DNA of 64,000 nt, taken from Perna viridis. Its lineage: Eukaryota. The DNA lies in contig CM074516.1 of NCBI GenBank assembly GCA_037379345.1, forward strand, positions 18,910,001 through 18,974,000, given 5' to 3'. Shown here one piece after another: positions 10,301-64,000 of this stretch. How positions within the stretch are numbered: position 1 is the stretch's first letter; every line of letters starts with the position of its first letter. Made by a program: the position numbers and the translations under genes. Below the pieces are notes generated by a model. That model was not told the origin of the DNA. It saw only the letters and a program-made list of their open reading frames with translations, and made no database searches.

Positions 10301-11200
10301 AGCTCAATAATTAAGGAGCACTTCTGATAAGAATCATGCAAAATGTGATTCATGGTTGGAAAGCCTACATATTTTTATTTGTGGTATTCTGTTTGAAATG
10401 TGAACATAAATTAACTTGGGGCTTTTCATACAACCCTTGTTCTTAGGAGATAAAAACTATATAGAATGTACTGTAAAATACAAAATTAAGGTAGATAACT
10501 CTGTTAATGGCACTAAATAAAATAGAAACTATTGAATTTTCATTGTGCATTATCTCCGAAGAGCAACTTAATAATCAAAAATGCGTATTTTTTTTTACAG
10601 AATTTGCATCATGTTTTACAAGACTGCTACTTAAATGATAAAAAATCATAGAATATTTGACTTACATATCAAGTGGTGTATAATCCAGTGGTTTATCACA
10701 AATCCAGCTATGTTTTGGCAAACATTGGTCATACAAATATTTATAATTTTTGCAGAAATTCATTGGCACTGCAGAAGTGACGGCTACAAAAGCGGCTAAC
10801 AGCATAACTTTCATCTGTAATGATGTAACGAAAATTTTAGTGAATATTACATGTATTTTTATAACCGATAAAAGCCTTTTAATTTCAGTCACGGAACATG
10901 GATATTTATATGAAATAAATGCATGCATCATTTGTTGAAAATCAAGATTGCTGTGCTTATGAATGGTGAAAATATTATTAAATTTAAATCAAGCGTTTTT
11001 GAAAAGATAGTCTAAACTGGAAGATAGAAACAGATATTTTGCTAGGTTAAATTTTTCCCTTTTTACTTACAAAATTCAATTAAATCCAAAAGAAAACATA
11101 TTATTTGTTATACGAATGAAAGTAAGATTAAAGAAAATTGCAAAACCTTTCATTTTCGGCTTAATTTTTTTCCCTTTTTGTTAGTTTCGAAACTTACCAT
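7396..11200 (-). CDS. Gene A1: secreted Spaetzle/neurotrophin-like cystine-knot protein, 212 aa, 5 coding exons
   Basis: Manually spliced exons 11200-11198 (ATG|gtaag), 10814-10666, 9818-9723, 9321-9139, 7603-7396, all GT-AG, 639 nt in frame. Protein: MMKVMLLAAFVAVTSAVPMNFCKNYKYLYDQCLPKHSWICDKPLDYTPLDMRGLRQKLVQSDDSFIHYIKSCGECLGEPGPYSETADYVKKPVCREVKVPVEFVNKTIYDPLTGLPYGYEVCQVVLNGPDRNIQKIYRTDCFNGDKRRNNQYCRFDYGTFKEYFCRPTNYVYRTMLIDCPTTGLEYYKEKVSTACSCVKVKCISGISPPIFK. Hydrophobic signal peptide and terminal CxC; homologous exon by exon to A2-A5. The family call rests on motif recognition only. Confidence 0.88.
10315..10630. mobile_element. TTAA-flanked non-autonomous DNA transposon, family 2 (A1 intron 2)
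   Basis: ttaa|GGAGCAC...ACTGCTAC|ttaa, colinear with 5095-5489. Confidence 0.65.
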
Positions 11201-11525: not shown

Positions 11526-14014
11526 ATGGTAAGAAAGCTTTCTTATTATCTTTTTGAAAAGCTTGTTTGCAATAAAACATTGTTCCTTTATAACTTAATT
11601 GAAAAATAACAAACATAGTTGCATACATGAATTCTGGATTTTACATTTGAAGAAAGTTTAGTTCAGTGTATACTGAATGTATTCCAAGCAAATGAATTAC
11701 TGTTTTTTTATGCTTGGCTAAATAGTGGTAAAACTTGCAAATAGAAAGTAACCAAACACTTTTCAAATCAATTAGAAAATTATATATAAATGAAAGGTCA
11801 TTTTTGATGTCCAAATAAACAATTACATACCCGTTCAATTATGATAAACATTTAATGTATATCTTTTTGCTTTAACTTCAGATCAGAAAAGTCATTGTAC
11901 TAATCGTCTTGGTGCCCTGTTGTTTTGGGCTTCTGTTTAATAAGAACAAATGCATCGTGGATCCTATCGAAAATAGATGGCCAGATATTGTCAAAGTTTG
12001 CAAGGAACCGTTAGAATATAACCAGTAAGTACATGCATAAAGCATTATAAAAGCAAGATAAGAAATTATGGGAAAAGACTGACTATTTGGTTTTTTTTTC
12101 TGTACATGTATTATCATTGGATAAATTGACTAGATTAGCCTTAGTTTTCTAAATAGATAGTTTCAAGATATTAAATAATCTAAAAATGTAAAGAGCATTT
12201 GATCGACAAAAAAATATATAAAATGACAAAGATATAAAAAAAAATTATATACAACTATTGTATGTACTATATTCTGTCTGTACATTTTTACGTGAATACA
12301 TTACAGTTTATACCTGTGTTCGATGCTCCTTTTTTCTTCGTCTCTCTCTTAAACGAAAATTCTGATAAAATTACAAAAAGTCATTCAAATGGAATAAGGT
12401 CAATATAAGCAACCAATCATTAATAATACATGTAGTTATATTCTTGTTTGACAATCATTTGTTCTGAAAAGGTATTTTTGGAGCGCCAGGGTAATCTTTA
12501 ATGATCGCAACATTATATTAATGAGTATAAATTGAAGTAATTTATCAACACTATTAATTTTTCAAAATTTTCAGTGCTGCGATAGAACAAGCCTTGAAAG
12601 ACGACCCAGAAATGTTGATGTTTGTCGAAGATGCCAGTAAGATATACAGACCTGCAGTTCCCTACTCTGATCCCCAGTAAGTACTTAAAATTGTAACAAC
12701 CTCAAAGGCATGCCAGATCATAAGCGGAACATACAGTCTTGAAGTTGAATTAACTCTGGCCTCAAACTGTAAAAAAAAAAATATGGGAATTTCACTACAA
12801 AAAATTGGTAGATAGAATTTTTATAAAGGATACTTAACAGACTGTCTTTCATAGTTTAAAAAAGAAAATTGGGGTCACCTACCTTTTTTTCTTGTAATAT
12901 TAAAATATAACCCTAAAACTCCTGTTACATTTCTATAGAATATATAACCGCCAATTGTCTCCCCTTAAAAGAGGCTTGATACACTGAATATTTGTAATTT
13001 TACCATACAATTTTTATGCTTACATTTCTTTTAAAATTCAAAAATACTGTTTTTACATCATTTCACACATTACTACTTCATCTAAAATATGTATGTCTGT
13101 ATGATTTTGTACGATGACAGTCTGATAGGTGTGATCTGACTGAATAGCACAATGTTTCCTATGTTCTGTGTCTGTTGAACTTCATCTTAATCTAGAAAAC
13201 ATAATTTCCTGTACAAGAACATTTTATAATACTTGTATGTATAATTATTGTTTTAAGTGTTATATACAGTCTGAGATGTATATACTGGTACATTTTCGCA
13301 AAAACAAAGCTTACCGCTGTTGATGTTTAACGTGTTGTCGTCAACTTAAATAATTGATCTATCAACACAATTACAACATATTCATTTAATTTTCAGTATT
13401 TGTCCTGTCGATATTGGAGATAGCGTCAACGGTCCCCAGATTGTCGAATGTGGCAGCATCTGCCCTAGTTCATACGCCAACCTGACCACAGTGTGGTACG
13501 AATATGAACCAGGAAGGACAACCATGTGCAACGTAATCCGTCCATGGCAACAAGTTGTATATTACATGCAGTGCGGGTAAGTTTCTATCTAGTGTATACT
13601 CTTCATACACAGGATTCCCAGTGTAAATACATTTTGAACTCATAATGTTGTTCTCTTGTACATCATTCTATGCAAAAATCTGACAAGATTACAAGAAAAA
13701 GACAAAAGACAACTTTGAACCGTTTTATATATTTGAATACTGAAAACTTGAAAATCCCACAAAATTTAAAATATTGATTTATTTTCAGAACCAAATACCC
13801 CTTGGTTGATGGAATGGACAGTTCTTTCCAGTGCGTCCCAGAAAACATAATCAGGCGCAGAATTGCTATTTACTGCCCAAACCTTCCATCACAGTGTCAG
13901 AAAATGGATATAGATTTACCACAACACTGTGCAGCTAGCAGCTTTCGATGCAGAAAGAAGAAGGTCTCAAGAAGTATGCAGTTAGACAATTTATTCTCAT
14001 CTTTCGGATGGTAG
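11526..14014 (+). CDS. Gene B1: secreted Spaetzle-like protein with a degenerate cystine knot, 217 aa, 5 coding exons
   Basis: Exons 11526-11528 (ATG|gtaag), 11882-12024, 12575-12676, 13397-13576, 13789-14014; GT-AG, 654 nt in frame. MIRKVIVLIVLVPCCFGLLFNKNKCIVDPIENRWPDIVKVCKEPLEYNHAAIEQALKDDPEMLMFVEDASKIYRPAVPYSDPHICPVDIGDSVNGPQIVECGSICPSSYANLTTVWYEYEPGRTTMCNVIRPWQQVVYYMQCGTKYPLVDGMDSSFQCVPENIIRRRIAIYCPNLPSQCQKMDIDLPQHCAASSFRCRKKKVSRSMQLDNLFSSFGW. AATAAA at 14118-14123. Confidence 0.88.
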
Positions 14015-18372: not shown

Positions 18373-21300
18373 TTATTTAATGTTGCTTTGTTTACAGCCC
18401 ACTTTAACGCAGCTACAAGCAGTTGCAACATTTTTTGTCACGAATTGAAGTTTAGCAAATGGACAATAGACGACCATTTTCCTATTGACGAAATTGGTTG
18501 GTTTACAATAATAATCTGCTTTTGTTCCATAATCAAAAGAACACCTTTTACGGAATACTGCCTTTACTGAAGGATTACTGAAAGACAAAAGAAAACAATA
18601 TTTGAATGCAGTTGATAAGTAGCATATATATTCTAATCGAAAAATGTAATACTTTGTTTACTGGTGTTGTTTAATCCACATTAATCTTCTTTCCTTTTGA
18701 CCAAGCACAAATAATTCTTTTTTATTCAAGATGATGATATGGTCCCTGTTCTGCGTTCCTCAGACAAGCCACGTAGGGTGGTAGAAAAGTAGATAGGAAG
18801 GTAGGTAGATGTTGGTTGGTTGGTAGATAAATAATTATGACGAGAATGGATTGAAAAAAAAAGGAATAAAGATAGGTTGGTAAGTAGATAGGTAAATTGG
18901 AAGTTGTAGGTAGGTATGTAGATATGAAGTATAAGGAAAGGCGACAAAAATAGGTAGGTAGAAAGATATGTAGTTAGAGGGAGAAAGGTAGAGAAAGGTA
19001 GGCAGGTATGAGATGGCTTCATCTCAAATAATTTAATAAAAACATTTAAAGGTGAACTTATATTGAAGACCTTGAAAATATAGCAAGGGATGCAACAAGG
19101 TTGATGTTGCAGCTATTAAAAAATGCAGTATTATTGATAAACCGAAGTTGACAAATAAAAACTATTCCCCAATGTAACAAAATTGAAATGATATAGAAAC
19201 TTTCTTCTTAATATAACCATTGCTTGTTCCATTTTTTACCTCAACATCAAGCGTGAATGAAACATATCGGTTAAAGAAAGCGTTTTGTTGTTTTATACTT
19301 ACCCATGAAAACATTCTGTCTTGTAAACTTTCTGCACATTAAATTCTTCACTATTAAAGACAACCTGACAAACTTCATCTCCAAATTGTTGTGTGAAGAC
19401 ACGTACGAACTCAATCAGTGTTTTGACTTCTCGACATACTGGAAATTTATCATAAACTTTGGATGCACTACAATAGAATAGTAATAACAATGAAAATAGA
19501 ACAACATTAAAAAATACCAATCACGTTTATCTTTCGATATGCTGTACACGTGTTTCAAGGAGTAACCTCTCATCAGCAGCATTAGAATAAAAATATAAGT
19601 ATGAAGATGTTTAATCAAAACTTAATTGTATAAAGTAATCGAACTAAAAAAATATCGAAAAAGGAAGCCAAATATAGATTATTTTGTAGAATCATTGTCG
19701 AGCTCTTAGGGTAGTACAAATCATTTTAAGCCACATTTTGTCATGTTTTATCTGAATAGACAAAAACCAAACATGCATCATATGTTGTTCAATAAGTTGA
19801 TTTTATAAAATGTATATATTCATCGTGGTATCCGGTCAGTCTTGGTATGTAGTAGATCTGTCTAACCAGTTTATCCCTGAAGTCATATATCCCAATGTTA
19901 ATTTTGAATATTTTAATTTCTATGCTGAATAGTTCAATGTGATTGAGTCAAAATGTCAATATAACAATGTAGCTTATCTTAACCACAACCAATAACTAGG
20001 GAACTTCATTATTGGTACCCTAGTACACTAAATCGTGCAGGTAAATGACAAATGGCACTAACTATCGTTTCAAGAGGTTGGAAGTATTGATGCGCTTTTA
20101 AAATTTTATTTTTGTTTTCTTTAGTGTTTTTTGTTCCAAGGCAGTCGGTATAGTTTCGCTTTTTACCCTTTGACTTTAAGGACGCTCTGCTGTGGAAACG
20201 CAAGTCACCTGATCGTATTTCTTTTTCCCGATTGGCCAAATACTGATAACTTAATGGAGTTAAAAAAAACAGTATTGAAAAATTGAAATTGTGTTCGAAA
20301 AAAAAAAAAAATAACCAAAATTTTAATTTGCATGTCATGCGTTATTTTCTTGAAAGAAATATATACACCAAAAAGTAAAAGGTACAAAATTTTACTGCGT
20401 CGGCTATCTTTTTTTTTTTTAAAGATGTTACTTGTTTTTAATCAAACTGTAAGAGCTGTTTCCACGTTTTGGTTAGAATATTGGATAGAAACGATTTAGA
20501 GTCGGTGTATGCTGTGTTTAATTCTGCTTAAACCGACCCAAATTTCCATCTGTTTATGACTAATGAAACGTTGCAACAATACACATTAAATAAAACACCA
20601 CTAAAGCAATGTAATCATGTAATCATTTAAGAGCGATATTCTGCATTCACATTCTGCTAAGACTCCATGTTTGAATGAGGAATTAGATTGTCATGGAATA
20701 AGTGCAAACTGATGAATGGAACAAACCTATACATCGTATCAAGTAACTACACTTCCTAGAATCATGAAGGAGGCGATTAAGGAGAAATGTCATATATTTG
20801 AATTCATTTATCTTGTTAAGAAGAAAATTCTACAATGCTGAAAAAAAAATCTTCATATGTCTTTGAAGGGAAAAATATATGTTTTGCCTTCATACCTATT
20901 GTTATTTAACCTTAAATTTCTTTTTAGCAGAGGTCATTTCAGTACAAACATATATGACACATTAGATGATGATAGAAATCTCTTTTTGTGCAGATATATA
21001 CAAGCTTCCCCTACAAATATTGTTTTTATTTCTCGGTTGTTTAGGTGTCAGAACTAGAAGCGACTATTCTGACATTTAACTTAATATGCAATAAATGCCT
21101 TTGATCAACGTAAGTTCAAAACTGTTATTGATTTACTCATAATTTGTTTTTGAATCGGTCTATTCTCGAGCCAGAGCTCAGGGAGAGATCCAGACACTTT
21201 GAAAATGAGTGGTGCTAGCCGTAGTTTCTCTTAAAACGGGGGTAGGGGTGCTAGAATATTATTTATCATTTTTTAATCAATTTTACACATGAAAATGAGT

Positions 21301-21382
21301 AATTTTGCAACAAAAAAGGAGGGATGCTTACCCCCTGCACCCGCTGTAGTTACCTCTCATTTCATTTGTTTTGCGTTTATTT

Positions 21383-21454
<72 letters not shown>

Positions 21455-23722
21455 AACCAAATATCAGTACTGACATTTTAGATTACTTATTTAAAAATAA
21501 TTTTACAATTCCTTACATAACTGTGACATCTCCTTAATGTTCCGCCCTTTTAGCTGCTAAGCGTAAATTCTTAGTCATTGTAAAATGCACTTACCTTCTC
21601 TTATTAGCTGTGCCTATACATGCACCAGAAAGTAATTTTGAATACTCTATTGAACCGTTGTACAGTGCTGATTTAAGTGTATTTCTATCAATAGATAATA
21701 ATAATAAAAATACAATTAAGACACGTGGAACATTAAATGGATCCAGATAAATTGAAGTTTTAGCGTCTACAGAAACCGCTGGGAATTGTCTTGTTCTGGC
21801 ATTTATAAAATTGCAGGGAGGACCAGTGTTTAACCCAATTTTTGAGCAATAAAAATATTTTTCAATACTTCCTTTCTCTCATTTTTTTTGCTTTCTAAAT
21901 ATTATAATCCAATGTATTTTCAGAAAAACTACAAAATAACGTATTAATTTTTGCGGTCTACTAACTTTTGCTATTTTTATGATGGACGAAAAATACTGAA
22001 AATGAGTCCTCATAACATTGATTTTTAACACTAGATAGTTTTTTTTTAAACCGAAAAGTTTTACCGAAAAAAAATAACCTGATAAAACCAGCAGAAATTG
22101 GCAACTGCAAAAAATCATATATTAAAAATAACTTCTGGTGACATAATTACTCTATTGAACCAAATGACTGATTGATATGCATGTGTATATGTGTACATAC
22201 ATGTAGCCGTTCCTTTGAGGAACCCTACGAAAAGAAAATATCACATAGGTTTTCATAGTATTATTTCTGTAAAGGACTTCGTTTCACACGTACAAATGTA
22301 ACGTTTAAGGTATCAAGTTCAAAAATACTTCAAGGAAATAAGAATTTAAACATTATGAAAAGAATATAATACAAGGATAACAACTAGACTGGATAAATAG
22401 ACATTCACAAGAAAGGAAATGAAATAACTAAAGTAATAACACGTATAATGAAAAAAAAAAGAAATTGAGCAACTTGGAAACAACTGAAACTTAGAGAATG
22501 GACCAGGTGCACCGGTAAGGTAACTGTCCTTTGCTTTTCGAGAAATTACTACCGACCTTATACCGTGAAATTACTATTATTCGTGGGGTATAAATCTTCG
22601 TGGCAAAACTACGAAATTTGGTTCCCAACGAAAAGGAGATTTTCATTGATGTGGATACCGAAAACCTCAAAAACACCAATTCAAGAATCCACGAACTTTC
22701 TTCCCTAATCCGCATAAATTGGTATCCACGAATTAAAGTACTTTCACAGTATCTATGAAGTGTGATTGTACGTACCTATCAAGAACATCGTATACTGGTG
22801 GTTTGTCGCACATCCATTCTCTTGAGGGAAGACATTGATTGTACATTCCATTGTACTGTTCACATGCAGGTTTGCTCCTTTCGATAGAGGGAACAAAGTC
22901 AAGAAATCTTTGGAGAGGTGTTGATGTCAATTGTTCAGATTGAACTAAGGAGGCAGCCACAGATAAAACGACCAATGTCCTGAACTGAACAACATAATTT
23001 TGCATGGTTGAATTTATTTCTTTATTACATTAGACAATAAAAACATATTGTGCTGAAAGACACAAAAAATAATATACGTATAAAAAATAAAATATAGTTT
23101 TAAAAGTAATACAAAGTAGAATAGAAATCCTAAGTATAGTAATGAGATAATTAATTGTAAAATAGGATTACGTTTTACGAAAAACGCCTAGACTTGATAC
23201 GTAAGTACAACTTGTCCCGCAAAAGAAATCTTTAAGCTGTGTTGGCCCAAGTAATTATAACTTGATTATTTGCGATAAGCCATTGATAGTTCTGCTACAT
23301 TTATAGATTTTCAAACATACCCATTGTTTAAGAAGAAACTGAGTATTTTTCAACCAAGGAATGATTTCTAAAAAAAGAATTTAGTAGAGACCTTTTAAGA
23401 CGCATTTCCTCATAACCATGATTCAGGAGTCTGTTACTCAGATATTTATGGCGTTTTGGAAAATCAGATAAATTAGTATTTTCTCAAGCGTAGCGAATTG
23501 ATTGTGATATATAAACACCATATGCAGAAAATATTTTCCCAAACGTCAACTAAAAATCTAATATAAAAAAACAAAAACTTTGAATAAGACTTTTGAACCT
23601 GGTTATTTTCCCTCTATCAGTCATCAAATTTTGAATCTAGTGTAAAAGACGACTCTAAACACTCTGATCAACATTGATATCTTTTAGAAATATGAGTTAG
23701 ACTTAAAATGTTACCTTACCAT
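18373..23722 (-). CDS. Gene A2: secreted Spaetzle/neurotrophin-like cystine-knot protein, 223 aa
   Basis: Exons 23722-23720 (ATG|gtaag), 22984-22776, 21684-21595, 19467-19303, 18577-18373; 672 nt in frame. MFRTLVVLSVAASLVQS...LQRFLDFVP...CEQYNGMYNQCLPSREWMCDKPPVYDVLDRNTLKSALYNGSIEYSKLLSGACIGTANKRSASKVYDKFPVCREVK...EVCQVVFNSEEFNVQKVYKTECFHGNPSVKAVFRKRCSFDYGTKADYYCKPTNFVNRKMVVYCP...VATACSCVKVGCKQSNIK. Confidence 0.88.
18770..19015 (+). repeat. Degenerate (GTAG/GGTA)n purine-rich low-complexity tract (A2 intron 4)
   Basis: Repeated aggtag/gtagat units. Confidence 0.7.
21387..21452 (+). repeat. Poly(A) tract, 66 nt (A2 intron 3)
   Basis: Uninterrupted run of A. Confidence 0.95.
22561..22751. 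mobile_element. TA-target MITE (A2 intron 2)
   Basis: TACCGTGAAATTACTATTATTCGTGG ... CCACGAATTAAAGTACTTTCACAGTA imperfect TIRs. Confidence 0.7.
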
Positions 23723-24086: not shown

Positions 24087-27000
24087 ATGGTAAGTTAAAT
24101 TATTTTTATCTCAACCTTTTTTTACCAGAAAATGTGTTTTTCCATAACTTTGCCTTACACAATTGTGTATAAACATCAAAAGTAGGAAGCGTGTTGGTTT
24201 CCTCTATTACTAGGCGCTCCAGACAGGCCTTTGGAAATTCTCGGATTTAATTCAAATTGTATGTCTTTTGACACTCCGATAGGGTAGCATAAAATCATTT
24301 AGTTTTTCCCGACTTTGCAAGATTCTTGCATTTTCCGAGAGGGTTGGCTGCAGTGTCTAGAGTGAATTTCAAACGTCAGATCTGTTTGGAGTTTGCAGAG
24401 TAATCAAGGGAATCAAGCTTATAGCGGTAATAAAAAAAATGCAATCCAGGGACAAAGACCAGACAGGGAAAACAAACATACACAACATAGAACACAAAGT
24501 AACTAAAATCATACATACAAAGTAACAAAGGCAAATGAGCAACGCGGACTCCACTAAAAACTGGGAGCATGGACCAGGTGCACCGGTAGGGTAAGCGTCC
24601 TCCGCTTTTCTAGAAACACCCGCCGAGGTGCTAATGCAGAAGTAGAAATAAATGAATCGTTCAATGTTCACTACTAGTAATTTAAATATAGTTTTGTGCT
24701 TATGCTAAATAATGGGAAGAGTCTTTTATTATAGTCCGTTTAATACTTTTATTTCCAAATTGATTACCTGAGCAAGTGCGAATTCAAAATTGCATACATT
24801 CAATTTTACTCGTAAAAAAATAATTAAAAAAAAATAATTATTATGAATACTTTATCGAATGAGTTATAAACATTTTCAATGTTTCAATCACTACAATGTT
24901 CCCTAGCAGGAATGTTTTCATCCAATTAAGTCCAGGTAAAAGCACGGCAATGGGTAGCACATGAAATTTGTTTGTTTGTTTTTTTTTTAAATTTCATCTT
25001 TTTAATAGCACAAATGCATCCTTTCTCAAAGTTGGATTTTAATTTTTATTAACTGCAACCGTTAAAAAGATATTTTTGTTCGCATAATTAGAGTTATTTA
25101 ATCACCTTTTTAAATTAAATTAACTTCTCTATCCCCGAAAAAAAAATTGGGCAGGTGGTTAAATATTTACGCATAAGCATTCATTCTTCTTGTTAAATCA
25201 TTAAACACAGCACAAAAATATATATAAATAATTGTGCTTAATTAACATTTTTAGACAAGCAAGTTTATCAGGTGACAAAGAAAATGTATAACATATACTT
25301 TAATCAATATTTTGATGTTTTAACAGTGCTTATCATCCTTGATCATTACTTTAAAGGATTTCGTTTGAAATGGGCAGTAAAACAAAAAAAAAAAAAAAAC
25401 CAAAAAAAAAAAAAAAAAAAAAACCAAACAAACAATCAAGAAAAAATAAACAATACAAAACAAAACAAAAAGACAATAGAATTATGGCAGAAAATTGACG
25501 ATCACCTTTTTCTCCACTTCTCATAGGGTAAGTGTCTCAGACACGTCTGATGAAAATATGTTTATTGAAAATATGTTTAATAATACTGTTTATATAGGAC
25601 GTAGCTGTTTCCCATATGGACCGGTATTTATATTGCAGATAAGAGTCTTAGTCAATGTATTGGTTCTCCATGCTGTTGTAAATGCCTCACCACAAACGTG
25701 TGTAATTAATCCAGATGAGCTTAAATGGTCCAATGATAAGATATGTAATCAAACAATGGAATATCCACAGTATGTAGATGGTTTAAATATGTTTTCATTC
25801 TTTCTTAAAATATTTTAATAACATTTTAAACATCCACACCAAAACCAAAGTACAATGTAATGCACTTTAACCAAAAAGAACGCAATAGTCTTTTGTTCAT
25901 ACTCCCGACCTTGACGTCGTTTTTTTTCAAAAAGATTTAAAACAAAGGGTAGTAACTTTATCCATTTTTGCTATCCGGTAGACTGGTTTACTGGCAGGTT
26001 GGAGCAATGCACAGCAGTCGAATTCAAATATTAAATTTCAGAGCCGCGGTAAATACTTGAATACTTTTAAATAACTTATTACAACCATTTAGGTACTTAA
26101 CGAAGTAAAAATAGTCTAAATCAAAAAAAATGTTTACTATGTTCCCTTTCGCCAATGAGACCGTTAACCAAGTTGTCGTGTATTGGTGGGTTATGACCTT
26201 TGAAAAACGTGATTCAACGGCATGCATTTCTTAAATATGAAAAACGGACTATTGCACAGGAAAGACCAAACAAATGTATAGACACTCAAAACAGAATTCC
26301 TGAAATAACTTAAATACTACCTAAAAGTAAAGGAGCAAAACAGACATTTTTAAAAACTTGGAGCACTGAGCTGGTGCAGTGGAAGTTTTGTGCTTTTCTA
26401 GGATCACCGGTCAAAACAAGTTTTTTTTTTTACATGTAAAATATATCATATCTTATATGATAATGAACTTGATAAACTTCATTTAAATACAAACAGAAAA
26501 ATGAAATTTAAGTTCTGAAAAAAGTTATCAAGCAAAAAAAAAATAATAGTCAATATACCAAGGTAGTTCCTTTACAGTGATACTATTGAAAAGGCATTAA
26601 TGGCTGATGCAGAAAAGTTGGCATTCGTGGAAAATGCGGCAGAGTTTTATAAACCACTACCTTACCAGAATGTAGAGTAAGTTTTTGCTAGAGGACTGTG
26701 ATGTTCTTTTATCATGTTCAGGATTTTGAAAATATATAGTCCACTACTTTTGTACATAATCTTTTGAGAAACATACACATGGGTTTGACTGGGTACTGCA
26801 ACACCTTACGGGTGCAATGGAAATATCAAAAGTAAGGGACACCGCTGCTGGTGGATTTTGTCCATGACGGATCATCAACCCAGTAATATAATTCATGGTT
26901 TTAACTAGAAGAATGCATGCAAAACTGGCTCGGACGTCGCCCAATATAAAAAGGTCCGAACCTGACAACAGACCAGACACCCTGTTGTCCTGCAAGACTG

Positions 27001-38939: not shown

Positions 38940-41739
38940 TTAAGCTTTGCAACTCATTTTAACACAGCTGCAGGCAGTAGCAACCTTATGTGTAGTGAGC
39001 ACAAAGCCGGACACTGGACAATGGACGACAATTTTCCTGGAGACGAAGTTTGTTGGTTTGCAATAGTAGTCTACCTTGGTTCCATAATCAAATGCACATC
39101 TTTGTCGGAATTCTGCCTTAACTGAAGGGTCACTGTAAATTATAAATATAAAAAAATAAATATTTTTGTTTCTTTGTATGTGTTATTTATTTTTTTCAAG
39201 ATCTTTGTTGAGTATGACTATTTCCTTTCTAGATTTTTACATACTTTTTATAACCGCTCGATTACCATTATATAAATATTAGGATAACAATGTATGCTAA
39301 ATACGAAATGAAAACAAAAATATATGGTCACTCCATAATCTATAACTACGGTCACCTGAAAAACAAGGACAAAGAGAGCTTTTTTTCAATACGTCATAGT
39401 AATTCATATAATCTGAAATATAAAGTTTTTTTGACTTTACACTTACCCGTTAAGACATTCTGTTCTGTAAAGTTTTTGAATATTGGCCTCCTCATTATTA
39501 AAGACAACCTGACAAACTTCATTTCCTAAATTTACGAATTCAATCAATGTTTTGACTTCTCTACACACTGGATGTTTTGTATAAACGTTTGATACACTAC
39601 AAAAAGAAAACAATAATGAACAAAGTGATACACGTGAGTAGATGGACCTTAGTGTCATGCAATGCATATAACAAAATAGTTATACCAAACATTTTAATGA
39701 ACTTGAAATGGACCAAATATTTTGAAATACTTTGAAAGATAATCAAGAAAATCATTTTAATGGTAGAACGAAACCTGACCAAGTCAAACACTTGGTGTTT
39801 TTTTAAAGCCAGTTCAAATGTATTCGAACATAAACCTTAAATGAACCAATTTGAAAGTACGAAAAGTTTCATTTTAGACGGGTTTCACAGTTATGAAAGA
39901 AAATTAATGTAAATATTGATTACAACAATTAATCTTTGCTGTTTTATTCCTGGTGTATAGGTATTTAATGATTTTCGTTTTTGTCATTTATAGAAGTAGG
40001 TATTTCATCATCGTGAATAAACGTTGTACACGCAACATTCTTAAAAATATATCTTACGTTTTATCCTTGGCATTGCCTAAACATGCTGCTGAAAGGTGGT
40101 TGACAATCACGTCAGGTGCATGGACCAGTTCTTGGATGAATGTAGCTCTAAACAAACATTTTAAGTATATGTATTGATTTAAAACATTACTTAATCATTT
40201 GATATAATAAATACCTTATAAGTATTCATTTTGCGATTTTTGTTGTACAACATGTTTGATGTACTAATTTGACTACATACATGTATGATTAACACGTGTT
40301 AACTATTTGGATAATAGAAAGAAATAGAATTAAGTACATTGTATATTTCAATAACTGGTAAATGTATCAATTGATTTTTGGCAATCAGCACTATATATAG
40401 TCTTTATGATAAAACAGAGTGAAATGAACATAAATGCAGAACTTAGTACATATACATTAAAGTATTAAATAATCGTACTTATTAAAAACTTTATAATCTG
40501 CTGGTTTTTCACACATCCAGTTTACTGGAGGAAGACACTGATTGTACATTCCATGGTACTGGTTACATGCTGCCAACGTCCGCTCTTTCAATGGAACAAA
40601 ATCGAGGAATCTCTGAAGACCTATATTTGGTGAACTTGAATGTCCATGTGGTATTATCAACGAAAAAACCCCGGAAAGAGAGGCTAACATAAAAACAGCA
40701 AACATTGACACCATCTGTAATAAAAGCAGATAGTTTTATTCAGTATAATGTGTTTCATTACATTCAAAATGCCATACGAACTAATTGCTGTTCTTAAGTA
40801 ACAAAAGTAATCAATTATATCCTCCATAATTTCAGGATCAACTATTTCGATAAATTCTGAATGATATGTTTTTGTGGAAGAAACTTCGTTTAAGTTTTAT
40901 TTTGTATCACAAATTGCTACCTTATACACTAAAAAAGGAAATCAATAAAACATTCATTTCAAGTTTTGCATGTTGTAAAATACTCTTTTCAATAATGACA
41001 GGAGATCATAAGTTTTATGCATAACAAGTTTTTAGCTTATAAATGGAAGAAAAAGTCATGATGCACCAAAAAAAGATGACATTATGTTGATATTCAATCC
41101 GAAAGCTACTGTAAAAAACAGTCCAGAATAGCCAGGTACATATTTACTTTTATACACAGACAAGGACAATGTATTGATTGGAAATAATAACAATATACAG
41201 ATGTGACCCAGAGTCGGGGTTACTCGAGACCATTTGCCGATTTCTTTTCTATTCGTGACTTGTATCTTATTTCTATTGATAATAACTATTTTTATAAGTT
41301 TCATTTAAATACAACGTATTTATAACATTTCCTTCCTACTACTGATTTCGTTGATCGTGACACATCGATATTCAGGTTGTTGAGGCAGCGATGGTAAAAT
41401 AGGCGGTGCCATATTTGTATATATTGTCAGTGACAGCACACTAGCATCTAGTATACTGTCAGTGCTTTTTAATTTTTCAAATAAGAAAACTGCTGTACAC
41501 AAAAAATACAACAGCGTTAAAGAAAGGTCAAATTTATCTTCTAATTGAAATTCGTTGATCAGGATTATAAAATTCGCAAACGCTAGTTTGTTTTGTTTTG
41601 GGAGAGGGGTGATAGATATAACAAAACAAGGATAATTTTAGTATATTAAACACAATGTAATAGCAAATAACGTATAGTCATTAAGTATACAAATAACAAA
41701 ATGGATGAACTTGTATATGTAAAAATTCGATCTTACCAT
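38940..41739 (-). CDS. Gene A3: secreted Spaetzle/neurotrophin-like cystine-knot protein, 223 aa
   Basis: Exons 41739-41737, 40714-40479, 40147-40058, 39596-39447, 39132-38940; 672 nt in frame. MMVSMFAVFMLASLSGVFSLIIPHGHSSSPNIGLQRFLDFVPLKERTLAACNQYHGMYNQCLPPVNWMCEKPADYKVFNKATFIQELVHAPDVIVNHLSAACLGNAKDKTVSNVYTKHPVCREVKTLIEFVNLGNEVCQVVFNNEEANIQKLYRTECLNGDPSVKAEFRQRCAFDYGTKVDYYCKPTNFVSRKIVVHCPVSGFVLTTHKVATACSCVKMSCKA. Confidence 0.9.
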
Positions 41740-42069
41740 TTTGTTTTGTTCCTGTACTTATCGGAGACTGTTCTTTATGATTCAAGTTTCACATTATCCT
41801 ACTTTTATAGTCGATTTTTCAGGAAATAAAAACATTTCTTGGAACCAAACTAAGAAATAAACTTAGACCCAATCAGCGATCTTTTTAAAATGGTCTTACG
41901 TCATGTGTATACACAGGTGTAATAACATGACGTTTTTAATGGTCTGTTGTTAAGTAGTCAATCACAACTTATAAAACCACAGATGTCAACATTTAGTATA
42001 TATATAACCTATGTAACTACAATTTCCAACATACAAACCATACACTTTGAACAGTTAAGATTCTTAAAA
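41740..42069. promoter_or_regulatory. Bidirectional promoter and 5' UTRs, pair A3/B3
   Basis: 330 bp; TATAAAA on the minus strand at 41803-41809, CCAAT at 41869, TTACGTCA at 41896-41903, TGACGT at 41928, TATATATATAA at ~41997. Confidence 0.7.
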
Positions 42070-44021
42070 ATGGTAAGTGAAATTAAACCTTTATATGATG
42101 TTGATATATGATATACACAGAAGGCAATATTCAGTAAGAAAAAATAATTCTATTCCCTTTAAAACAGCAAGAAAGACACCCTATTATTGAATTTTGATGT
42201 TAATACATGCTGTCTACGATTAAGTCAGTTTTTGCTGTGGAATAACAATGAATGTTTAAATCATTACGGAGGATGTCTTTAAACAATACGTGCCTCTATT
42301 TGATGATACTTTAAAAGGTTCAATTCTCTCTTTTTTAATTTTTAGATTAAGTATCTAGCTATTTGCTTTATCGCATTTACTGCAACTAGTGCCTTTAAGC
42401 AAACATGCAAAATTGATCCTGATGAACTGAAATGGTCAAGAGAAAAGATATGTGATCAACATATGGATTATCCACAGTAAGTGAAACTTTTCTTTTCTTT
42501 TTATAAGAAAATAAAGAAAACAAAATCTAAAACATAAGAAAATAAAAGAAAAAAAAATAACAAACTATAAACAAATAATCGAATACAAATAATCCAACAA
42601 AGACCAAAAAATACTTTAAGCAATATATCGTCATAACGACATACACAAGAGAAAAGGCTATTTCCATTTCTAATGTCATTTACTTCTATTTCTCGCAGTG
42701 ATACAATAGAAAAGGCGTTACGGAATGATAAAAAGATGTTGGACTTTGTTGAAAATGCTTCAGAATTCTACAATCCAGATTATTCTTACAGTAACACAGA
42801 GTGAGTATTATGAAAATAAGTTTATAAGACTGATGTGTAATAATTTCATATAACTTAAACTATTTCTTGCAGACATCGTTTAAATATGTATCTTAAACGT
42901 GCCCTAAGTACTTTCTTAATCTGAACAAATTTTCGTTGTTTCCATTTCTTGTCATTTTTCGTTTTAAGACCCGACACGAAAATGACATCAGTTTCATTTT
43001 AACTCCTGAAAATAGGAATAAAAAGCTTATAGCAAACTTACATTTTCTTATATGATTTTTAATTTTGTCTCATTTGAAAGACATTATATCTTACACCATA
43101 CAAAGTATTTTTTACTTAGAAATAGTAAAAAATAAATAAATTGCTAATTAATATAAAATAAATCTTAAGGTATATGACGAATTTCAGAACTTGTGATGCC
43201 TACCTAGGAACAGAACAAGATTTCGTACAAAAGAAGGTTGAATGTGGAAATATCTGCCCCGGTAGAAATGTAAATCTGACCACAGTCTGGTACGAATATG
43301 AAAACAGCCGTACTATGTGTAAAGTAATTCGTCCATGGCAACAAATTGTTTCCTACACCGAGTGCAAGTAAGTGCAGTGGTTTTGTTTGGTTCAGACATT
43401 ACATTTAATTGTGCCTACTTGATGTTTTACTAATTTTCATATAAAAATGATGCAATAACCGTTATGGTACTGTACATGAATTTATGTTTTGATTCGTCGC
43501 TTTTATATTAATATAGATTATGTATTAACCAAGGTAGATATATTTGAATTAATTTAATTTAAATATAACTGAGCACATTTTTTGAACGTCGGATTGATGG
43601 TTCCGGTATTCCATTTTGCGATTTGGAAATCTAACCAATCCGAACCATACATAAACGGGACACTTTATGATAATATTGTTATCTAAAGTCTTTTTAAAGT
43701 AACTACTGATGATGTAAAACCTGCCTAATCCGAAAACATATTAATGAATTTAATTTTCATTTCTTTGTATTTTTTTTTTATTTTAGTGAAAAAACTCCGA
43801 ACGTACCAAGAATGGATAAATCGTTCCGATGTCTACCAGAGAACCCTCTGAGAAGGAAAATTGCAGTCTACTGTCCAGATATCATCCCTCAGTGTAAATT
43901 GATGGAAATTGAACTTCCACAACATTGTGCCGCCAGTCAACTCAAATGTATAAAGAAGAAAGAAACCAAAATGGCCATACTTGATTCACTTTTTGCTAAT
44001 TGGGGTAGTAGTTTCTTTTAA
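42070..44021 (+). CDS. Gene B3: secreted Spaetzle-like protein with a degenerate knot, 216 aa
   Basis: Exons 42070-42072, 42346-42476, 42699-42800, 43188-43367, 43787-44021; 651 nt in frame. MIKYLAICFIAFTATSAFKQTCKIDPDELKWSREKICDQHMDYPHDTIEKALRNDKKMLDFVENASEFYNPDYSYSNTETCDAYLGTEQDFVQKKVECGNICPGRNVNLTTVWYEYENSRTMCKVIRPWQQIVSYTECNEKTPNVPRMDKSFRCLPENPLRRKIAVYCPDIIPQCKLMEIELPQHCAASQLKCIKKKETKMAILDSLFANWGSSFF. Confidence 0.9.
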
Positions 44022-50392: not shown

Positions 50393-52485
50393 TTAAGCTT
50401 TGCAACTCATTTTAACACAGCTGCAGGCAGTAGCAACCTTATGTGTAGTGAGCACAAAGCCGGACACTGGACAATGAACGGCGATTTTCCTGGAGACGAA
50501 GTTTGTTGGTTTGCAATAGTAGTCTACCTTTGTTCCATAATCAAATGCACACCTTTGTTGGAATTCTGCCTTAACTGAAGGGTCACTGTAAATGAAAATA
50601 TAAAAAAAATAAATACATTTGTTTCTATGTATATATTATTTATTTTGTTCATGATCATTGTTGAGTGTGACTATTTTCCCTTTCTAGTCTTTAGCGTTAG
50701 AATATATACTTTTAATAACCGTTCGAATCTGGGGTCTTTTGATTACACTTATATAAATGCATCCTAAAGACGAAATTAAAAAAAAGACACGGATATTTCA
50801 TAAAGGAACGACACATATCTTCGACTACTGTCACCACAAAAACAAAGACAATGATAGATGTTCTGTACATTAAGTGAATCATGAATCGGAAATATGATTT
50901 ATTCCAAAAAAAAAGTAACACTTACCCATTAAGACATTCTGTTCTGTAAAGTTTTTGAATATTGGCCTCTTCATTATTAAAGACAACCTGACAAACTTCA
51001 TTTCCCAAATTTACGAATTCAATCAATGTTTTGACTTCTCTACACACTGGATGTTTTGTATAAACTTTTGATACACTACAAAAAGAAAACATTTATGAAC
51101 AAAGTGATACACGTGAGTAGATGGACCTGAGTGTCGTGTAATGCATATGACAAAAGTTGCATTTTAGATGGGTATAACAGTTTAGAAATAATTAATGTAA
51201 GTATTGATTACAACAATTAATCTTTACTTTTTAATTCCTGGTGTATAGGTATTTAATGGTTTTCGTTATTGTCATTTATTGATTACTGAAAAGTACAGAA
51301 GTAGGTATTTCATCATCGTGAATAAACGTTGTACACGCAACATCTTTAAAAAATATATATCTTACGTTTTATCCTTGGCATTGCCTAAACATGCTGCTGA
51401 AAGGTGGTTGACAATCACATCAGGTGCATGGACTAGTTCTTGGATGAAGGTAGCTCTAAATAAACATTTTAAATATATGTATTATTTTAATAAATTACTT
51501 AATTATTTGATATCAAATACCTTATAAAAATTCATTTTGCGATTTTGTTGTACATCTTTTTTGATGTACTAATTACTACATATATGATTAACATGTGTTA
51601 ACTATTTTGATAGAACTAACTACACTGTATATTCCAATAACTGATACATGTATCAATTGATTTTTTGCAATCAGCACTATATGTTCTCTATGATAAAACA
51701 TAGTGAAATGAAAATAAATGCAGAACTTGGTGCATATTCATTAAAATGTTAAATAATCGTACTTATTAAAAACTTTGTAATCTGCTGGTTTATCACACAT
51801 CCAGTTTACTGGAGGAAGACACTGATTGTACATTCCATGGTACTGGTTACATGCTGCCAACGTTCGTTCTTTCAATGGAACAAAATCGAGGAATCTCTGA
51901 AGACCTATATTTGGTGAACTTGAATGTCCATGTGGTATTATCAAGGAAAATGCCCCGGAAAGAGAGGCTAACATAAAAACAGCAAACAATGGCATCATCT
52001 GTAATAAAAGCAGATAGTTTCATTCAGTATAATGTGTTTCATTACATTCAAAATTCCATAAAACGTATTTATTACATTTCCTTCCTACTACTGATTTCGT
52101 TGATGGTGACACATCGATATTCAGGTTGTTGATGCAGCGATGATAAAATAGGTGGTGCCATATTTGTATATATTGTCAGTGACAGCATATCAGCATCTAG
52201 TATACTGTCAGTGCATTTTAATTTTTCAAATAACAAAACTGCTGTACGCAAAAAATAAAATAGCTTTTAAGAAAGGTCAAATTTATCAAATTTGTTGATC
52301 AGGATTATACAATTGTCAGACGCTAGTTTGTTTTGTTTTCGTTTTGGGAGAGGGGTGACAGATATAACGAAACATGGATAATTTTAGTATATTAAACACG
52401 AATTAATAGCAAATACCGTATAGTCATTAAGTATACAAATAACAAAATGGATGAACTTGTATATGTAAAAATTCGATCTTACCAT
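50393..52485 (-). CDS. Gene A4: near-identical paralog of A3/A5, 223 aa
   Basis: Exons 52485-52483, 51998-51763, 51455-51366, 51075-50926, 50585-50393; exon lengths (3/236/90/150/193) match A3 and the frame is intact. Confidence 0.9.
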
Positions 52486-52816: not shown

Positions 52817-54779
52817 ATGGTAAGTGAAATTAAACTTTTATATGATGCAGATATAGGATATACACAGAAGGCAATATTCAGTAAGAAAAAAAAATTCTAT
52901 TCCCTTTAAAACAGCAAGAAAGACACCCTATTATTGAATTTTGATGTTAATACACGCTGTCTACGATTAAGTCAGTTTTTGCTGTGGAATAACAATGAAT
53001 GTTTAAATCATTATGTAGGATGTCTTTAAACAATACGTGCCTCTATTTGATGATACTTTAAAAGGTTCAATTCTCTTTTTTTTTATTTTTAGATTAAGTA
53101 TCTAGCTATTTGCTTTATCGCATTTACTGCAACTAGTGCCTTTAAGCAAACATGCAAAATTGATCCTGACGAACTGAAATGGTCAAGAGAAAAGATATGT
53201 GATCAACATATGGATTATCCACAGTAAGTGAAACTTTATTTTCTTTTCTTTTTATAAGAAAATAAACAAATAAAGAAAACAAAATCTAAAACATAAGAAA
53301 ATAAAAGAAAAAAAAAAACAAACTTGAAACAAATAATCGAATACAAATAATCCAACAAAGACCAAAAAATACTTTAAGCAATATATCGTCATAACGACAT
53401 ACACAAGAGAAAAGGCTATTTCTATTTCTAATGTCATTTACTTCTATTTTTCGCAGTGATACCATAGAAAAGGCGTTACAGAATGATAAAAAGATGTTGG
53501 ACTTTGTTGAAAATGCTTCAGAATTCTTCAATCCAGATTATACTTACAGTAACACAGAGTGAGTATTATGAAAATAAGTTTATAAGACTGATGTGTAATA
53601 ATTTCATATAACTTAAACTATTTCTTGCAGACATCGTTTAAATATGTATCCTAAAAGTGCCCTGAGTACTTTCTTAATCTGAATAAATTTTCGTTGTTTC
53701 CATTTCTTGTCATTTTCCGTTTTAAGACCCGACACGAAAATGACATCAGTTTCATTTTAACTCCTGAAGATAGGAATAAAAAGCTTATAGCAAACTTACA
53801 TTTTCTTATATGATTTTTAATTTTGTCTCATTTATTTGCACGACATTATATCTTACACCATACAAAGTATTTTTTACTTAGAATAGTAAAAAATAAATAA
53901 ATTGCTAATTAATATAAAAGAAATCTTAAGGTATATGACGAATTTCAGAACTTGTGATGCCTACCTAGGAACAGAACAAGATTTCGTACAAAAGAAGGTT
54001 GAATGTGGAAATATCTGCCCCGGTAGAAATGTAAATCTGACCACAGTCTGGTACGAATATGAAAACATCCGTACTATGTGTAAAGTAATTCGTCCATGGC
54101 AACAAATTGTTTCCTACACCGAGTGCAAGTAAGTGCAGTGGTTTTGTTTGGTTCAGACATTACATTTAATTGTGCCTACTTGATGTTTTACTAATTTTCA
54201 TATAAAAATGATGCAATAACCGTTATGGTACTGTACATGAATTTATGTTTTGATTCGTCGCTTTTATATTAATATAGATTATGTATTAACCAAGGTAGAT
54301 ATATTTGAATTAATTTAATTTAAATATAACTGAGCACATTTTTTGAACGTCGGATTGATGGTTCCGGTATTCCATTTTCGATTTGGAAATCTAACCAAAC
54401 CGAACCATACATAAACGGGACACTTTATGATAATATTGTTATCTAAAGTCTTTTTAAAGTAACTACTGATGATGTAAAACCTGCCTAATCCGAAAACATA
54501 ATAATTAATTTAATTTTCATTTGTTTGTATTTTTTTTATTTTAGTGAAAAAACTCCGAACGTACCAAGAATGGATAAATCGTTCCGATGTCTACCAGAGA
54601 ACCCCCTGAGAAGGAAAATTGCAGTCTACTGTCCAGATATCATCCCTCAGTGTAAATTGATGGAAATTGAACTTCCACAACATTGTGCCGCCAGTCAACT
54701 CAAATGTATAAAGAAGAAAGAAACCAAAATGGCCATACTTGATTCACTTTTTTCTAATTGGGGTAGTAGTTTCTTTTAA
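52817..54779 (+). CDS. Gene B4: near-identical paralog of B3, 216 aa
   Basis: Exons 52817-52819, 53093-53223, 53457-53558, 53949-54128, 54545-54779; exon lengths (3/131/102/180/235) match B3 and the frame is intact. Confidence 0.9.
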
Positions 54780-60279: not shown

Positions 60280-60793
60280 TTAAGCTTTGCAACTCATTTT
60301 AACACAGCTGCAGGCAGTAGCAACCTTATGTGTAGTGAGCACAAAGCCGGACACTGGACAATGAACGGCGATTTTCCTGGAGACGAAGTTTGTTGGTTTG
60401 CAGTAGTAGTCTATCTTGGTTCCATAATCAAATGCACACCTTTGTCGGAATTCTGCCTTTACTGAAGGGTCACTGTAAATTAAAATAAAACAAAAAATAA
60501 ATACATTTGTTTCTTTGTATATATTATTTATTTTGTTCATGATCATTGTTGAGTGTGACTAGTTTCCCTTCCTAGTTTTTAGCCTTAAAATATATACATT
60601 TAATAACCGTTCGAATCTGGGGTCTTTTGATTACACTTATATATATGCATCCTAAAGACGAAATTAAAAAAAAAGAATACGGATATTTCATAAAGGAACG
60701 ACACAAATCTTCGACTACGGTCACCACAAAAACAAAGACAATGATAGCTTTTCTGTACATTAAGTGAATCATCAATCGGAAATATGATGTATT

Positions 60794-60829
<36 letters not shown>

Positions 60830-63163
60830 TAACACTTACCCGTTAAGACATTCTGTTCTGTAAAGTTTTTGAATATTGGCCTCTTCATTATTAAAGACAA
60901 CCTGACAAACTTCATTTCCCAAATTTACGAATTCAATCAATGTTTTGACTTCTCTACACACTGGATGTTTTGTATAAACTTTTGATACACTACAATAAGA
61001 AAACAATTATGAACAAAGTGATACACGTGAGTAGATGGACCTGAGTGTCGTGTAATGCATATAATAAAAGAGTTATACCAAACATTTTAATGAACTTGAA
61101 ATGGACCAAATATATGTTGAACATTTAGAAAGATAATCAAGAAAATCATTTAAATTGTACAACGAAACCTGACCAAGTCAAACACTTGATGAATTCTTTT
61201 AAACCGGTTCAAATGTATTAATGTATTCGAACATAAATCTTAACTGAACCAATTTGAAATTACGAAAACTTTCATTTTAGATGGGTATAACAGTTTAGAA
61301 ATAATTAATGTAAGTATTGATTACAACAATTAATCTTTATTTTTTAATTCCTGGTGTATAGATATTTAATGGTTTTCGTTATTATCATTAATTGATTACT
61401 GAAAAGTACATAAGTAGGTATTTCATCATCGTGAATAAACGTTGTACATGCAACATCTTTAAAAAAATATATATCTTACGTTTTATCCTTGGCATTGCCT
61501 AAACATGCTGCTGAAAGGTGGTTGACAATCACGTCAGGTGCATAGACCAGTTCTTGGATGAATGTAGCTCTAAATAAACATTTTAAATATATGTATTAAT
61601 TTAATAAACTACTTAATTATTTAATATCAAATACCTTATAGAAATTAATTTTGCGATTTTGTTGTACATCTTTTTTGATGTACTAATTTGACTTACATGT
61701 ATGATTAACACGTGTTAACTATTTTGATAATAGAAAGAAATAGAACTAACTACATTGTATATTCCAATAACTGATAAATGTATCAATTGATTTTTGCAAT
61801 CAGCACTATATATTTTCTATGATAAAACAGAGTGAAATGAAAATAAATGCAGAACTTGGTACATATTCATTAAAATGTTAAATAATCGTACTTATTAAAA
61901 ACTTTGTAATCGGCTGGTTTATCACACATCCAGTTTACTGGAGGAAGACACTGATTGTACATTCCATGGTACTGGTTACATGCTGCCAACGTTCGTTCTT
62001 TCAATGGAACAAAATCGAGGAATCTCTGAAGACCTATATTTGGTGAACTTGAATGTCCATGTGGTATTATCAAAGAAAAGGCCCCGGAAAGAGAGGCTAA
62101 CATAAAAACAGCAAACAATGGCATCATCTGTAATAAAAGCAGATAGTTTCATTCAGTATAATGTGTTTCATTACATTCAAAATGCCATACGAACTAATTG
62201 CTGTTCTTAAGTAACAAAAGTAATCAATTGTATCCTCCATAATTTCAGGATCAACTATTTCGATAAATTCTGAACGATATGTTCTTGTGGAAGAAACTTC
62301 GTTTTAGTTTTATTTTGTATTAATATATGTTAGCTTATATTTCAGAAAAGGAAATCAATAGAACATTCATTTCAAGTTTTGCATGTTGTAAAATTCTCGT
62401 TTTGAATAATCACAGGAGATCATAAGTTGTATCCATTACAGGTCATTTATCTTATAAATGGAAGAAAAAGTCATGATGCATAAAAAAGAATGATACAATG
62501 TTATTATTCAATCCGAAGGCTATTGTAAAAAAAACCAATCCATACTAGCCAGATACATATTTACTTTTATACACAGACAAGGACAATGTATTGATTGGAA
62601 ATAATAAAAATATACAGATGTGACCCAGAGTCGGGGTTACTCAAGACCATTTGCCGATTTCTTTTCTATTCGTGACTTGTATCTTATTTCTATTGATAAT
62701 AACTATTTTTATCAGTTTAATTTAAATACAACGTATTTATTACATTTCCTTCCTACTACTGATTTCGTTGATGGTGACACATCGATATTTAGATTGTTGA
62801 TTCAGCGATTGTAAAATAGGCGGTGCCATATTTGTATATAGGGTCAATGACAGCATATCAGCATCTAGTATACTGTCAGTGCATTTTAATTTTTCAAATA
62901 AGAAAACTGCTGTACACAAAAAATAAAATAGCTTTTAAGAAAGGTCAAATTTATCTTCTTATTCAAATTCGTTGATCAGGATTATAAAATTCTCAAACGC
63001 TAGTTTGTTGTGTTTTCGTTTTGGGAGAGGGGTGATAGATATAGCAAAACATGGACAATTTTAGTATATTAAACAGTATGTAATAGCAAATACCATATAG
63101 TCATTAAGTATACAAAAAAACAAAATGGATGAACATGTATATGTAAAACTTCGATCTTACCAT
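60280..63163 (-). CDS. Gene A5: near-identical paralog of A4, 223 aa
   Basis: Exons 63163-63161, 62127-61892, 61569-61480, 60989-60840, 60472-60280; frame intact. Confidence 0.9.
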
Positions 63164-63497: not shown

Positions 63498-63908
63498 ATG
63501 GTAAGTGAAGTTAAACTTTTAGATGATGAAGATATAGAATATACACAGAAGGCAATTTTCAGTAATGGAAAGAGAAGCTTTTCTATTCCCTTTAAAACAG
63601 CAACAAAGACACCCTATTTTTAATTGTTGATGTTAATACATGCTGTCTACGATTAAGTCAGTTGTTCTTGTGTAATTACAATGAATGTTCAACATCATTA
63701 CGGAGGATGTCTTTGAGCAATACGTGCCTCTCTTTGATGATACTTTAAAAGGTTCAATTCTTATTTTTAATTTTTAGAATAAGTATCTAGCAATTTGCTT
63801 TGTCGCATTTACTGCAACTAGTGCCTTTAAGCAAAAATGCAAAATTGATCCTGATGAACTGAAATGGTCAAGAGAAAAGATATGTGATCAACATATGGAT
63901 TATCCACA
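63498..63908 (+). CDS. Gene B5, 5' part only (continues beyond the window)
   Basis: Exons 63498-63500 (ATG|gtaag) and 63778-63908: MNKYLAICFVAFTATSAFKQKCKIDPDELKWSREKICDQHMDYP|gtaag, homologous to B3/B4. Confidence 0.85.
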
Positions 63909-64000
63909 GTAAGTGAAACTTTATTTTCTTTTTTTTTTTTTATAAGAAAATAAACAAATAAAGAAAACAAAATCTAAAACATAAGAAAATAAAAGAAAAA

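Follow-up and report, generated by a model that had tools for sequence, protein, structure and literature searches.

Two kinds of gene that lie head to head and encode distantly similar proteins raise the question of whether one arose from the other in place, and whether their products work together. In a 64,000-nucleotide (nt) stretch of the Perna viridis genome (C6:18,910,001-18,974,000, hereafter the window), A genes and B genes form such divergent pairs, of which the third, A3/B3, is the focus here. A preliminary description of A3/B3 had proposed that A and B are ancient paralogues, that one ancestral gene was duplicated in inverted orientation, and that the pair was then tandemly amplified. 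The homology of A and B and the amplification of the pair stood up in our analysis, but the shared motifs and introns did not hold as proof of a special duplication linking A with B. In our explanation, A and B belong to one uncharacterised family that spans the molluscs and whose products are likely secreted pro-proteins with a Spätzle/neurotrophin-like cystine knot, and within this family they have diverged deeply. We give this explanation as a whole a probability of about 0.55.

Structure and homology of the A and B genes

Both gene types had been described as having five coding exons with intron phases of 0, 2, 2 and 2, and this organisation was found in 10 of the 10 genes that start in the window, the first coding exon being the ATG alone (Table 1). 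The helix-encoding exon, described as 90-102 nt long, corresponds in size to exon 3, and both A3 and B3 contain C-x4-DY. The last intron, in phase 2, indeed falls after the TEC motif, whose cysteine is the second of the knot; it lies three codons past that cysteine in A and one codon past it in B. The paired C-terminal motifs of A and B could all be located. Exon joints in RNA reads support three of the four introns of A3 and three of the four of B3, and a loose end matches the ATG exon of B. The RNA also places the acceptor of B exon 4 at 43188, where the first model had 43170. The B models in the 32-row tree, in the approximately unbiased (AU) tests with p = 0.0097 and p = 0.19 and in the comparisons that gave the nonsynonymous (dN) and synonymous (dS) divergences and the B3 match values carried 18 extra nt before exon 4, while the profile comparisons and the long-branch-free tree used corrected models.

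The homology of A and B was examined by the profile-profile alignment that the preliminary description had suggested as a check. Window-only profiles (A1-3 against B1-3) gave an hhalign score of 37.8 (E 5e-5, probability 67%), which is above chance, as 200 column shuffles scored 14.8 ± 2.9 with a maximum of 27.5. These profiles replaced an earlier comparison (99.8%) that was set aside, its two alignments having shared row P0018 and contained intermediate members. Judged from these sequences, A and B are almost certainly homologous, though distantly.

The two chains differ in their knots. The A chain carries all six knot cysteines, including the C-x-C, with 11-14 residues between Cys II and Cys III, and the predicted A3 protein has a hydrophobic N-terminus, a prodomain and a complete six-cysteine knot with three extra cysteines. 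B lacks knot Cys III and VI, because its 'QHCAAS' is not a CxC. Of 37 aligned rows, 9 are without both cysteines and the other 28 have both (one of the 37 rows was read separately); the 9 rows coincide exactly with the B-types of mussels, oysters and pearl oyster. We thus read A as a closed and B as an open knot from the cysteine positions. This distribution, a character independent of any tree, suggests that the B lineage is older than the mussel-oyster split; the A/B split predates that split. The hydrophobic N-terminus, judged by eye, makes it likely that A and B are secreted with a prodomain. A clear furin site was found in neither A3 nor B3.

Predicted fold and mollusc-wide relatives

AlphaFold models of the adjacent M. 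galloprovincialis orthologues of A1 and B1 (mean predicted local distance difference test, pLDDT, 75 and 70) have helices in the prodomain and a beta domain with two fingers. For neither model did Foldseek return a match at E 0.001, and the top of its list held sclerostin (rank 1), neurotrophins, IL-17 and PDGF. In the VIA comparisons, for which the tool threshold is 8, the A model matched IL-17 best (Z 4.8), with coagulogen tenth (Z 3.7), and the B model matched coagulogen (Z 6.4, 132 residues, root-mean-square deviation 5.0), IL-17 (5.5) and NGF (5.4). The leading Foldseek and VIA matches were nearly all knot proteins, and on these modest scores the models place both A and B in the cystine-knot growth-factor superfamily. 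The best PDB sequence matches were to sclerostin (E 0.009 and 0.05), and among the ESM Atlas neighbours a minority of members bore a Spaetzle, NGF or IL17 label. Pfam gave no significant family on 16 single window exons, the knot being split by an intron, and its Spaetzle model (PF16077) gave none for full-length Mytilus A1 and B1. Among 38 proteins, the best relative scored 22.3 bits (E 2e-4) against PF16077, and none reaches its cut-off of 27 bits. The NGF model (PF00243) gave no hit at E up to 1-10 in window exons, relatives or Mytilus A1/B1.

The A/B family would work like the Spätzle, neurotrophin and coagulogen group, yet it lies outside every named family. Judged from gene models and predicted folds, A and B appear to share with Spätzle and neurotrophins a hydrophobic N-terminus, a helical prodomain and a C-terminal knot; the Spätzle layout in PMC2772990 is signal peptide, prodomain and C-terminal knot. 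UniRef labels some family members 'Spaetzle domain-containing', and a phase-2 intron after knot Cys II also occurs in C11a, a canonical Spätzle-like gene of P. viridis (C11:22.19M; Pfam Spaetzle E 9e-5 on the last exon), where this last intron is at exactly B's position. Two exons of C11a were recovered, and its upstream exons were not found. A and B differ from Spätzle in three additional cysteines, two in the fingers and one at the C-terminus, and B is without Cys III and VI. The extra cysteine adjacent to knot Cys V in Spz1 and Spz2 (PMC2772990) is missing in A and B but present in two unlinked family members, C8a and C8b. The likeness to DAN and sclerostin lies in a finger-2 stretch, 'C-P...R...CP...C-x-C', and a finger-1 cysteine that line up, and by sequence position alone A and B have cysteines at both DAN/sclerostin positions of the finger 1-finger 2 pair. 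However, the CxGxC ring is missing in A and B, some clam and abalone relatives having CxGxC, and the Pfam DAN score is under the cut-off. The structural alignment of B with coagulogen covers the prodomain helices and the knot, but at 11% identity and with a Z within 1 of IL-17 and NGF.

A HMMER profile of the last exons recovered 44 hits among 1.84 billion proteins. Of these, 36 belong to the family and eight were rejected as off-family, namely a Sushi protein of 281 aa and seven long repeat proteins. When B3 exon 5 was the only query, a word-indexed search for homologues returned nothing. Named members come from mussels, oysters, pearl oyster, scallops, unionids, Solemya, Mercenaria and Dreissena among bivalves, and from abalone and Gigantopelta. 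They are annotated as uncharacterized, hypothetical or, automatically, 'Spaetzle domain', with the sole exception of 'hic23' (QXO74908.1), a family member of Sinohyriopsis cumingii. We found no paper on hic23 or on six oyster and scallop identifiers in a search that excluded supplements, and no published description of the family in one that excluded supplements and subscription journals. The abalone shell proteins UP1 and UP2 were dropped as members, being disordered A/Q/L- or A/L/P-rich proteins in PMC6003135.

The P. viridis genome (723 Mb searched) also holds three unlinked singletons, at C8:5.23M (C8a), C8:29.55M (C8b) and C10:8.04M (C10a), which have the same three phase-2 introns, a helical exon of 90-96 nt and the same cysteine pattern; the 5' ends of C8a and C10a are uncertain. 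The third exons of the singletons are basic and helical, C8a and C8b retain a Spätzle-type C-C-x-C, and basic motifs in C8a and C10a are, by eye, candidate furin sites. Nine other genome hits were judged on reading to be chance matches (C6:5.04M, C13:16.7M, C13:28.1M, C10:42.06M, C5:13.4M, C1:28.1M, C7:33.3M, C11:0.61M and C6:1.31M). The first resembles what we take to be an LDL-receptor-type repeat, and the last reached E 3e-4 yet is without the closing CxC. A hit at C9:42.5M was covered by the tblastn screen only.

Amplification and origin of the pair

Eight A and eight B genes were located within ~93 kb by exon searches that included 100 kb of flanking DNA, each A being paired with a B. Motif search and self-BLAST put the A genes on the minus strand and the B genes on the plus strand; pairs 1-7 are oriented alike and pair 8 is inverted. 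In the array, the same exon and flanking searches met no full-length A or B that lacked a partner; two A fragments are present besides the eight pairs. The distance from ATG to ATG is 325-364 bp in seven pairs, although intron lengths differ several-fold, and the ~330-bp spacing is retained even between pairs whose synonymous sites are saturated. Mirrored A and B subtrees with pair 1 splitting first, as the preliminary description had expected, were seen in the tree and dN analyses. Both trees read (1,(2,(3-8))), with discordant and weakly supported branching within 3-8, and the dN matrices of A and B correlate (rho 0.91, 28 non-independent comparisons). Copies 3-8 are six near-identical, recent copies, and in all pairs for which dS is defined dN is the lower of the two, indicating purifying selection. 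The unit of tandem amplification is, with very little doubt, the pair and not the single gene. To our knowledge, no head-to-head pair of Spätzle subunits has been known.

The nearest named proteins are those of Mytilus (~75% identity over trimmed columns), with which A1 and B1 group with support of 100/98 and 98/96, respectively. In five Mytilus species the A1 and B1 orthologues have consecutive accessions on one record (Table 1), from which a head-to-head orientation may be read there too. Since A1 and B1 group with Mytilus proteins that are numbered consecutively, the pair as a duplication unit is older than the split from Mytilus, and pairing can be traced back as far as this P. viridis-Mytilus split. 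On the same records lie a second, divergent A-type and B-type (P0005 and P0006 clusters), which the exon searches did not meet in the P. viridis array.

Tight spacing together with joint duplication points to shared regulatory DNA, and the spacer is likely a shared promoter of both genes; it contains words that we take to be CCAAT-, TGACGT- and TATA-like. In the stranded RNA run X10, A reads and B reads fall on opposite strands, showing divergent transcription of A3/B3-type copies (reads of the near-identical copies 3-8 are not distinguishable, so that A3-type and B3-type denote any of them), and A3-type and B3-type RNA co-occur in runs X1, X3 and X10. Pair 7 has lost most of its spacer and the ATG exon of B7, with the other A7 and B7 frames open; it offers a natural promoter-deletion test of the shared-promoter idea.

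Beyond the window, pair 5 is followed within ~37 kb by pairs 6 and 7 and by pair 8, which is inverted. Directly upstream of A7 exon 2 there is a partial copy of A exon 2, and 3.4 kb beyond pair 8 a broken fragment of an A last exon; one flank of the array is empty. The interval between pairs 4 and 5 carries an inserted open frame resembling what is presumably the 3' end of a reverse-transcriptase gene of a non-LTR (long terminal repeat) retrotransposon. An interspersed repeat of ~200-330 bp occurs in many copies on both strands and is abundant in RNA reads.

Table 1. Positions of genes, exons and other features of the array, in window coordinates unless marked C6, and accessions of the Mytilus orthologues.
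Feature	Position or accession	Strand	Details
Gene A1	7394..11200	-	212 aa; orthologue of Mytilus A1 proteins; RNA joint 7603/9139
Gene B1	11526..14014	+	217 aa; orthologue of Mytilus B1 proteins
Gene A2	18373..23722	-	223 aa; model alone
Gene B2	24087..31085	+	216 aa; model alone
Gene A3	38940..41739	-	5 coding exons, 223 aa; RNA joints 39132/39447, 39596/40058, 40147/40479
A3 exons	41737-41739 (ATG only), 40479-40714, 40058-40147, 39447-39596, 38940-39132	-
Spacer A3/B3	41740..42069		330 bp between ATG exons; contains both 5' leaders; alignable with pairs 2, 4 and 5
Gene B3	42070..44021	+	5 coding exons, 216 aa; RNA joints 42476/42699, 42800/43188, 43367/43787
B3 exons	42070-42072 (ATG only), 42346-42476, 42699-42800, 43188-43367, 43787-44021	+
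Gene A4	50393..52485	-	splice-site model
Gene B4	52817..54779	+	splice-site model
Open frame	58611-59018	+	135 codons
Gene A5	60280..63163	-	splice-site model
Gene B5	63498..64000	+	coding exons 1-2; runs beyond window end
Pair 7, site of loss	C6:18994300-18994620
Pair 8	C6:19004826-19010384		inverted
Interspersed repeat copies	2463-2658, 4935-5022, 22355-22545, 24395-24630, 27777-28119, 28783-28994, 46238-46574, 47434-47596, 57121-57457
M. galloprovincialis A1/B1	LOC143048457/458
M. trossulus A1/B1	LOC134688212/213
M. coruscus A1/B1	CAC5402868/869 and CAC5424281-283
M. edulis A1/B1	XP_071133946/947 and CAG2248089/090
M. californianus A1/B1	LOC127725547/548

The motifs and introns shared by A and B are no proof of a duplication between them, because they are family-wide, occurring in the three singletons and, for the last intron, in C11a. 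A and B are deep paralogues that may have originated in one local flip, an origin that we rate somewhat below an even chance. One ancestral gene would have been copied directly, in inverted orientation, in an early bivalve or mollusc to give the A/B pair, and the singletons, gastropod and clam genes would descend from copies of A or B that were moved or lost their partner. This is the simplest account of head-to-head paralogues 330 bp apart that both have an ATG-only first coding exon. However, A against B is among the weakest matches within the family. B3 matches the unlinked C8a at E 1e-10 and its best A at E 2e-4, and the profile score of mussel A against mussel B is 42, compared with 113 for A against other bivalve A-types and 110-123 for B against oyster B-types or gastropod proteins, although rate differences affect such scores.

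The trees bear on the local flip in both directions. In the 32-row tree, the branch that holds A also contains scallop, oyster and unionid proteins (98/97), and the one that holds B contains those of oyster and pearl oyster (88/82). An A+B clade is absent from both free trees; all trees are unrooted and contain no Spätzle or neurotrophin outgroup, and they permit a root between A and B. The A+B constraint was rejected on the full 32-row set (AU p = 0.0097), but a broader constraint uniting A-types with B-types was not (p = 0.19). With seven long branches removed, A+B was not rejected (p = 0.17), in a tree that collapses in its deep part and recovers neither wider grouping (five truncated or near-duplicate rows were omitted from the 32-row tree and 12 rows from the long-branch-free tree). 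In a self-BLAST of the window, A and B shared no nucleotide similarity and formed no palindrome, and the evidence for pairing was obtained in mussels only; both count against an inverted duplication.

Tentatively, two diverged members of an old tandem cluster may instead have been brought head to head by a local inversion, sharing regulatory DNA passively and forming separate homodimers. Such a rearrangement has a precedent in the inverted pair 8, and one-type tandem clusters are suggested in abalone, unionids and oysters by runs of close accession numbers; the existence of singletons and the expression of A1 alone fit it as well. It is harder to reconcile with the ~330-bp spacing kept across pairs saturated at synonymous sites, with the carrying of both genes in every amplification and with the weak model support for an A+B complex.

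Possible working of A and B

In our explanation, regulatory DNA common to A and B would lock the genes together, so that any viable duplication would include both. Where both are on, closed-knot A and open-knot B would dimerise outside the cell in the manner of thyrostimulin or bursicon, and A1 could also be made alone. Thyrostimulin GPA2/GPB5 and bursicon alpha/beta are linked cystine-knot paralogues whose products heterodimerise, according to PMC4079206. The likeness is that of two paralogous knot genes conserved in close linkage (eight pairs here and five Mytilus species), but A and B belong to a different knot family (no CxGxC ring, a long prodomain), their pair is amplified eightfold, A1 is expressed alone and the dimer is weakly predicted. 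The predicted complex of Mytilus A1 and B1 had an interaction score (ipSAE) of 0.56, the highest-scoring control among three reaching 0.03. Its runs agreed in at least 74% of contacts and the partner pLDDT was at least 70, a result that the tool's verdict calls 'weak support'. The mark of this test is reached by 51 of 78 solved and 2 of 108 mismatched pairs, and passes at or below 0.60 are wrong more often than right. From this modelling, an A+B heterodimer seems possible, with the odds rather against it.

Several observations weigh against our explanation. The controls of the complex test included neither A+A nor B+B, and close cousins pass the test too. No second family member was seen within the 40 kb read near each of the three singletons, and several Mytilus accession series have A-A or B-B neighbours. 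A1 was transcribed without B1 in all three raw-read runs, with 4, 17 and 3 reads of its last joint in X10, X11 and X12, while the depth of the B1 exon-4 bin was 0 in these runs and in X1 (4 of 4). The two genes of pair 1 therefore need not be co-expressed. Run X11, with its A1 joints, had no B3-type RNA; neither A3-type nor B3-type appeared there with exon joints or real exon coverage. The RNA runs are also low in depth and of unstated tissue. This mixed RNA evidence favours partial co-regulation, which we regard as probable for A and B, and leaves a heterodimer possible but non-obligate.

A more elaborate form of the proposal appears doubtful as a whole. It would be a two-subunit bivalve Spätzle-class system with a bidirectional promoter, an A+B heterodimer and, through duplications of the whole pair in mussels, several interchangeable A/B combinations, serving as an extracellular ligand or a coagulogen-like matrix former, with the Cys III-VI bond lost in B before the mussel-oyster split. 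Unlikely, in turn, is a place for the proteins in the extracellular matrix of shell, periostracum, byssus or clot, where they would be structural or gel-forming, coagulogen-like rather than receptor ligands and amplified to raise dosage: horseshoe-crab coagulogen is the best structural match of B, in an alignment that takes in the N-terminal helical part, a unionid member was deposited as 'hic23' (the hic series being, we assume, Hyriopsis shell-matrix proteins) and six near-identical recent copies suggest dosage, but that match is tied with IL-17, barely above NGF and under the threshold, coagulogen ranks only tenth for A, no hic23 paper was found and read depth was low in the RNA runs examined.

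In Wilson 2009 (PMC2772990), lophotrochozoans yielded no Spz genes. A mollusc-wide Spätzle-like family would thus supply candidates for the bivalve ligands of Toll/Trk type that are still missing; alternatively, it may be a new shell or clot matrix protein. If A and B form no dimer, the locus would be an ordinary tandem array of orphan secreted proteins. If they do, a conserved head-to-head pair with one subunit short of a knot disulfide would represent a new, independently evolved heterodimerisation in the superfamily.

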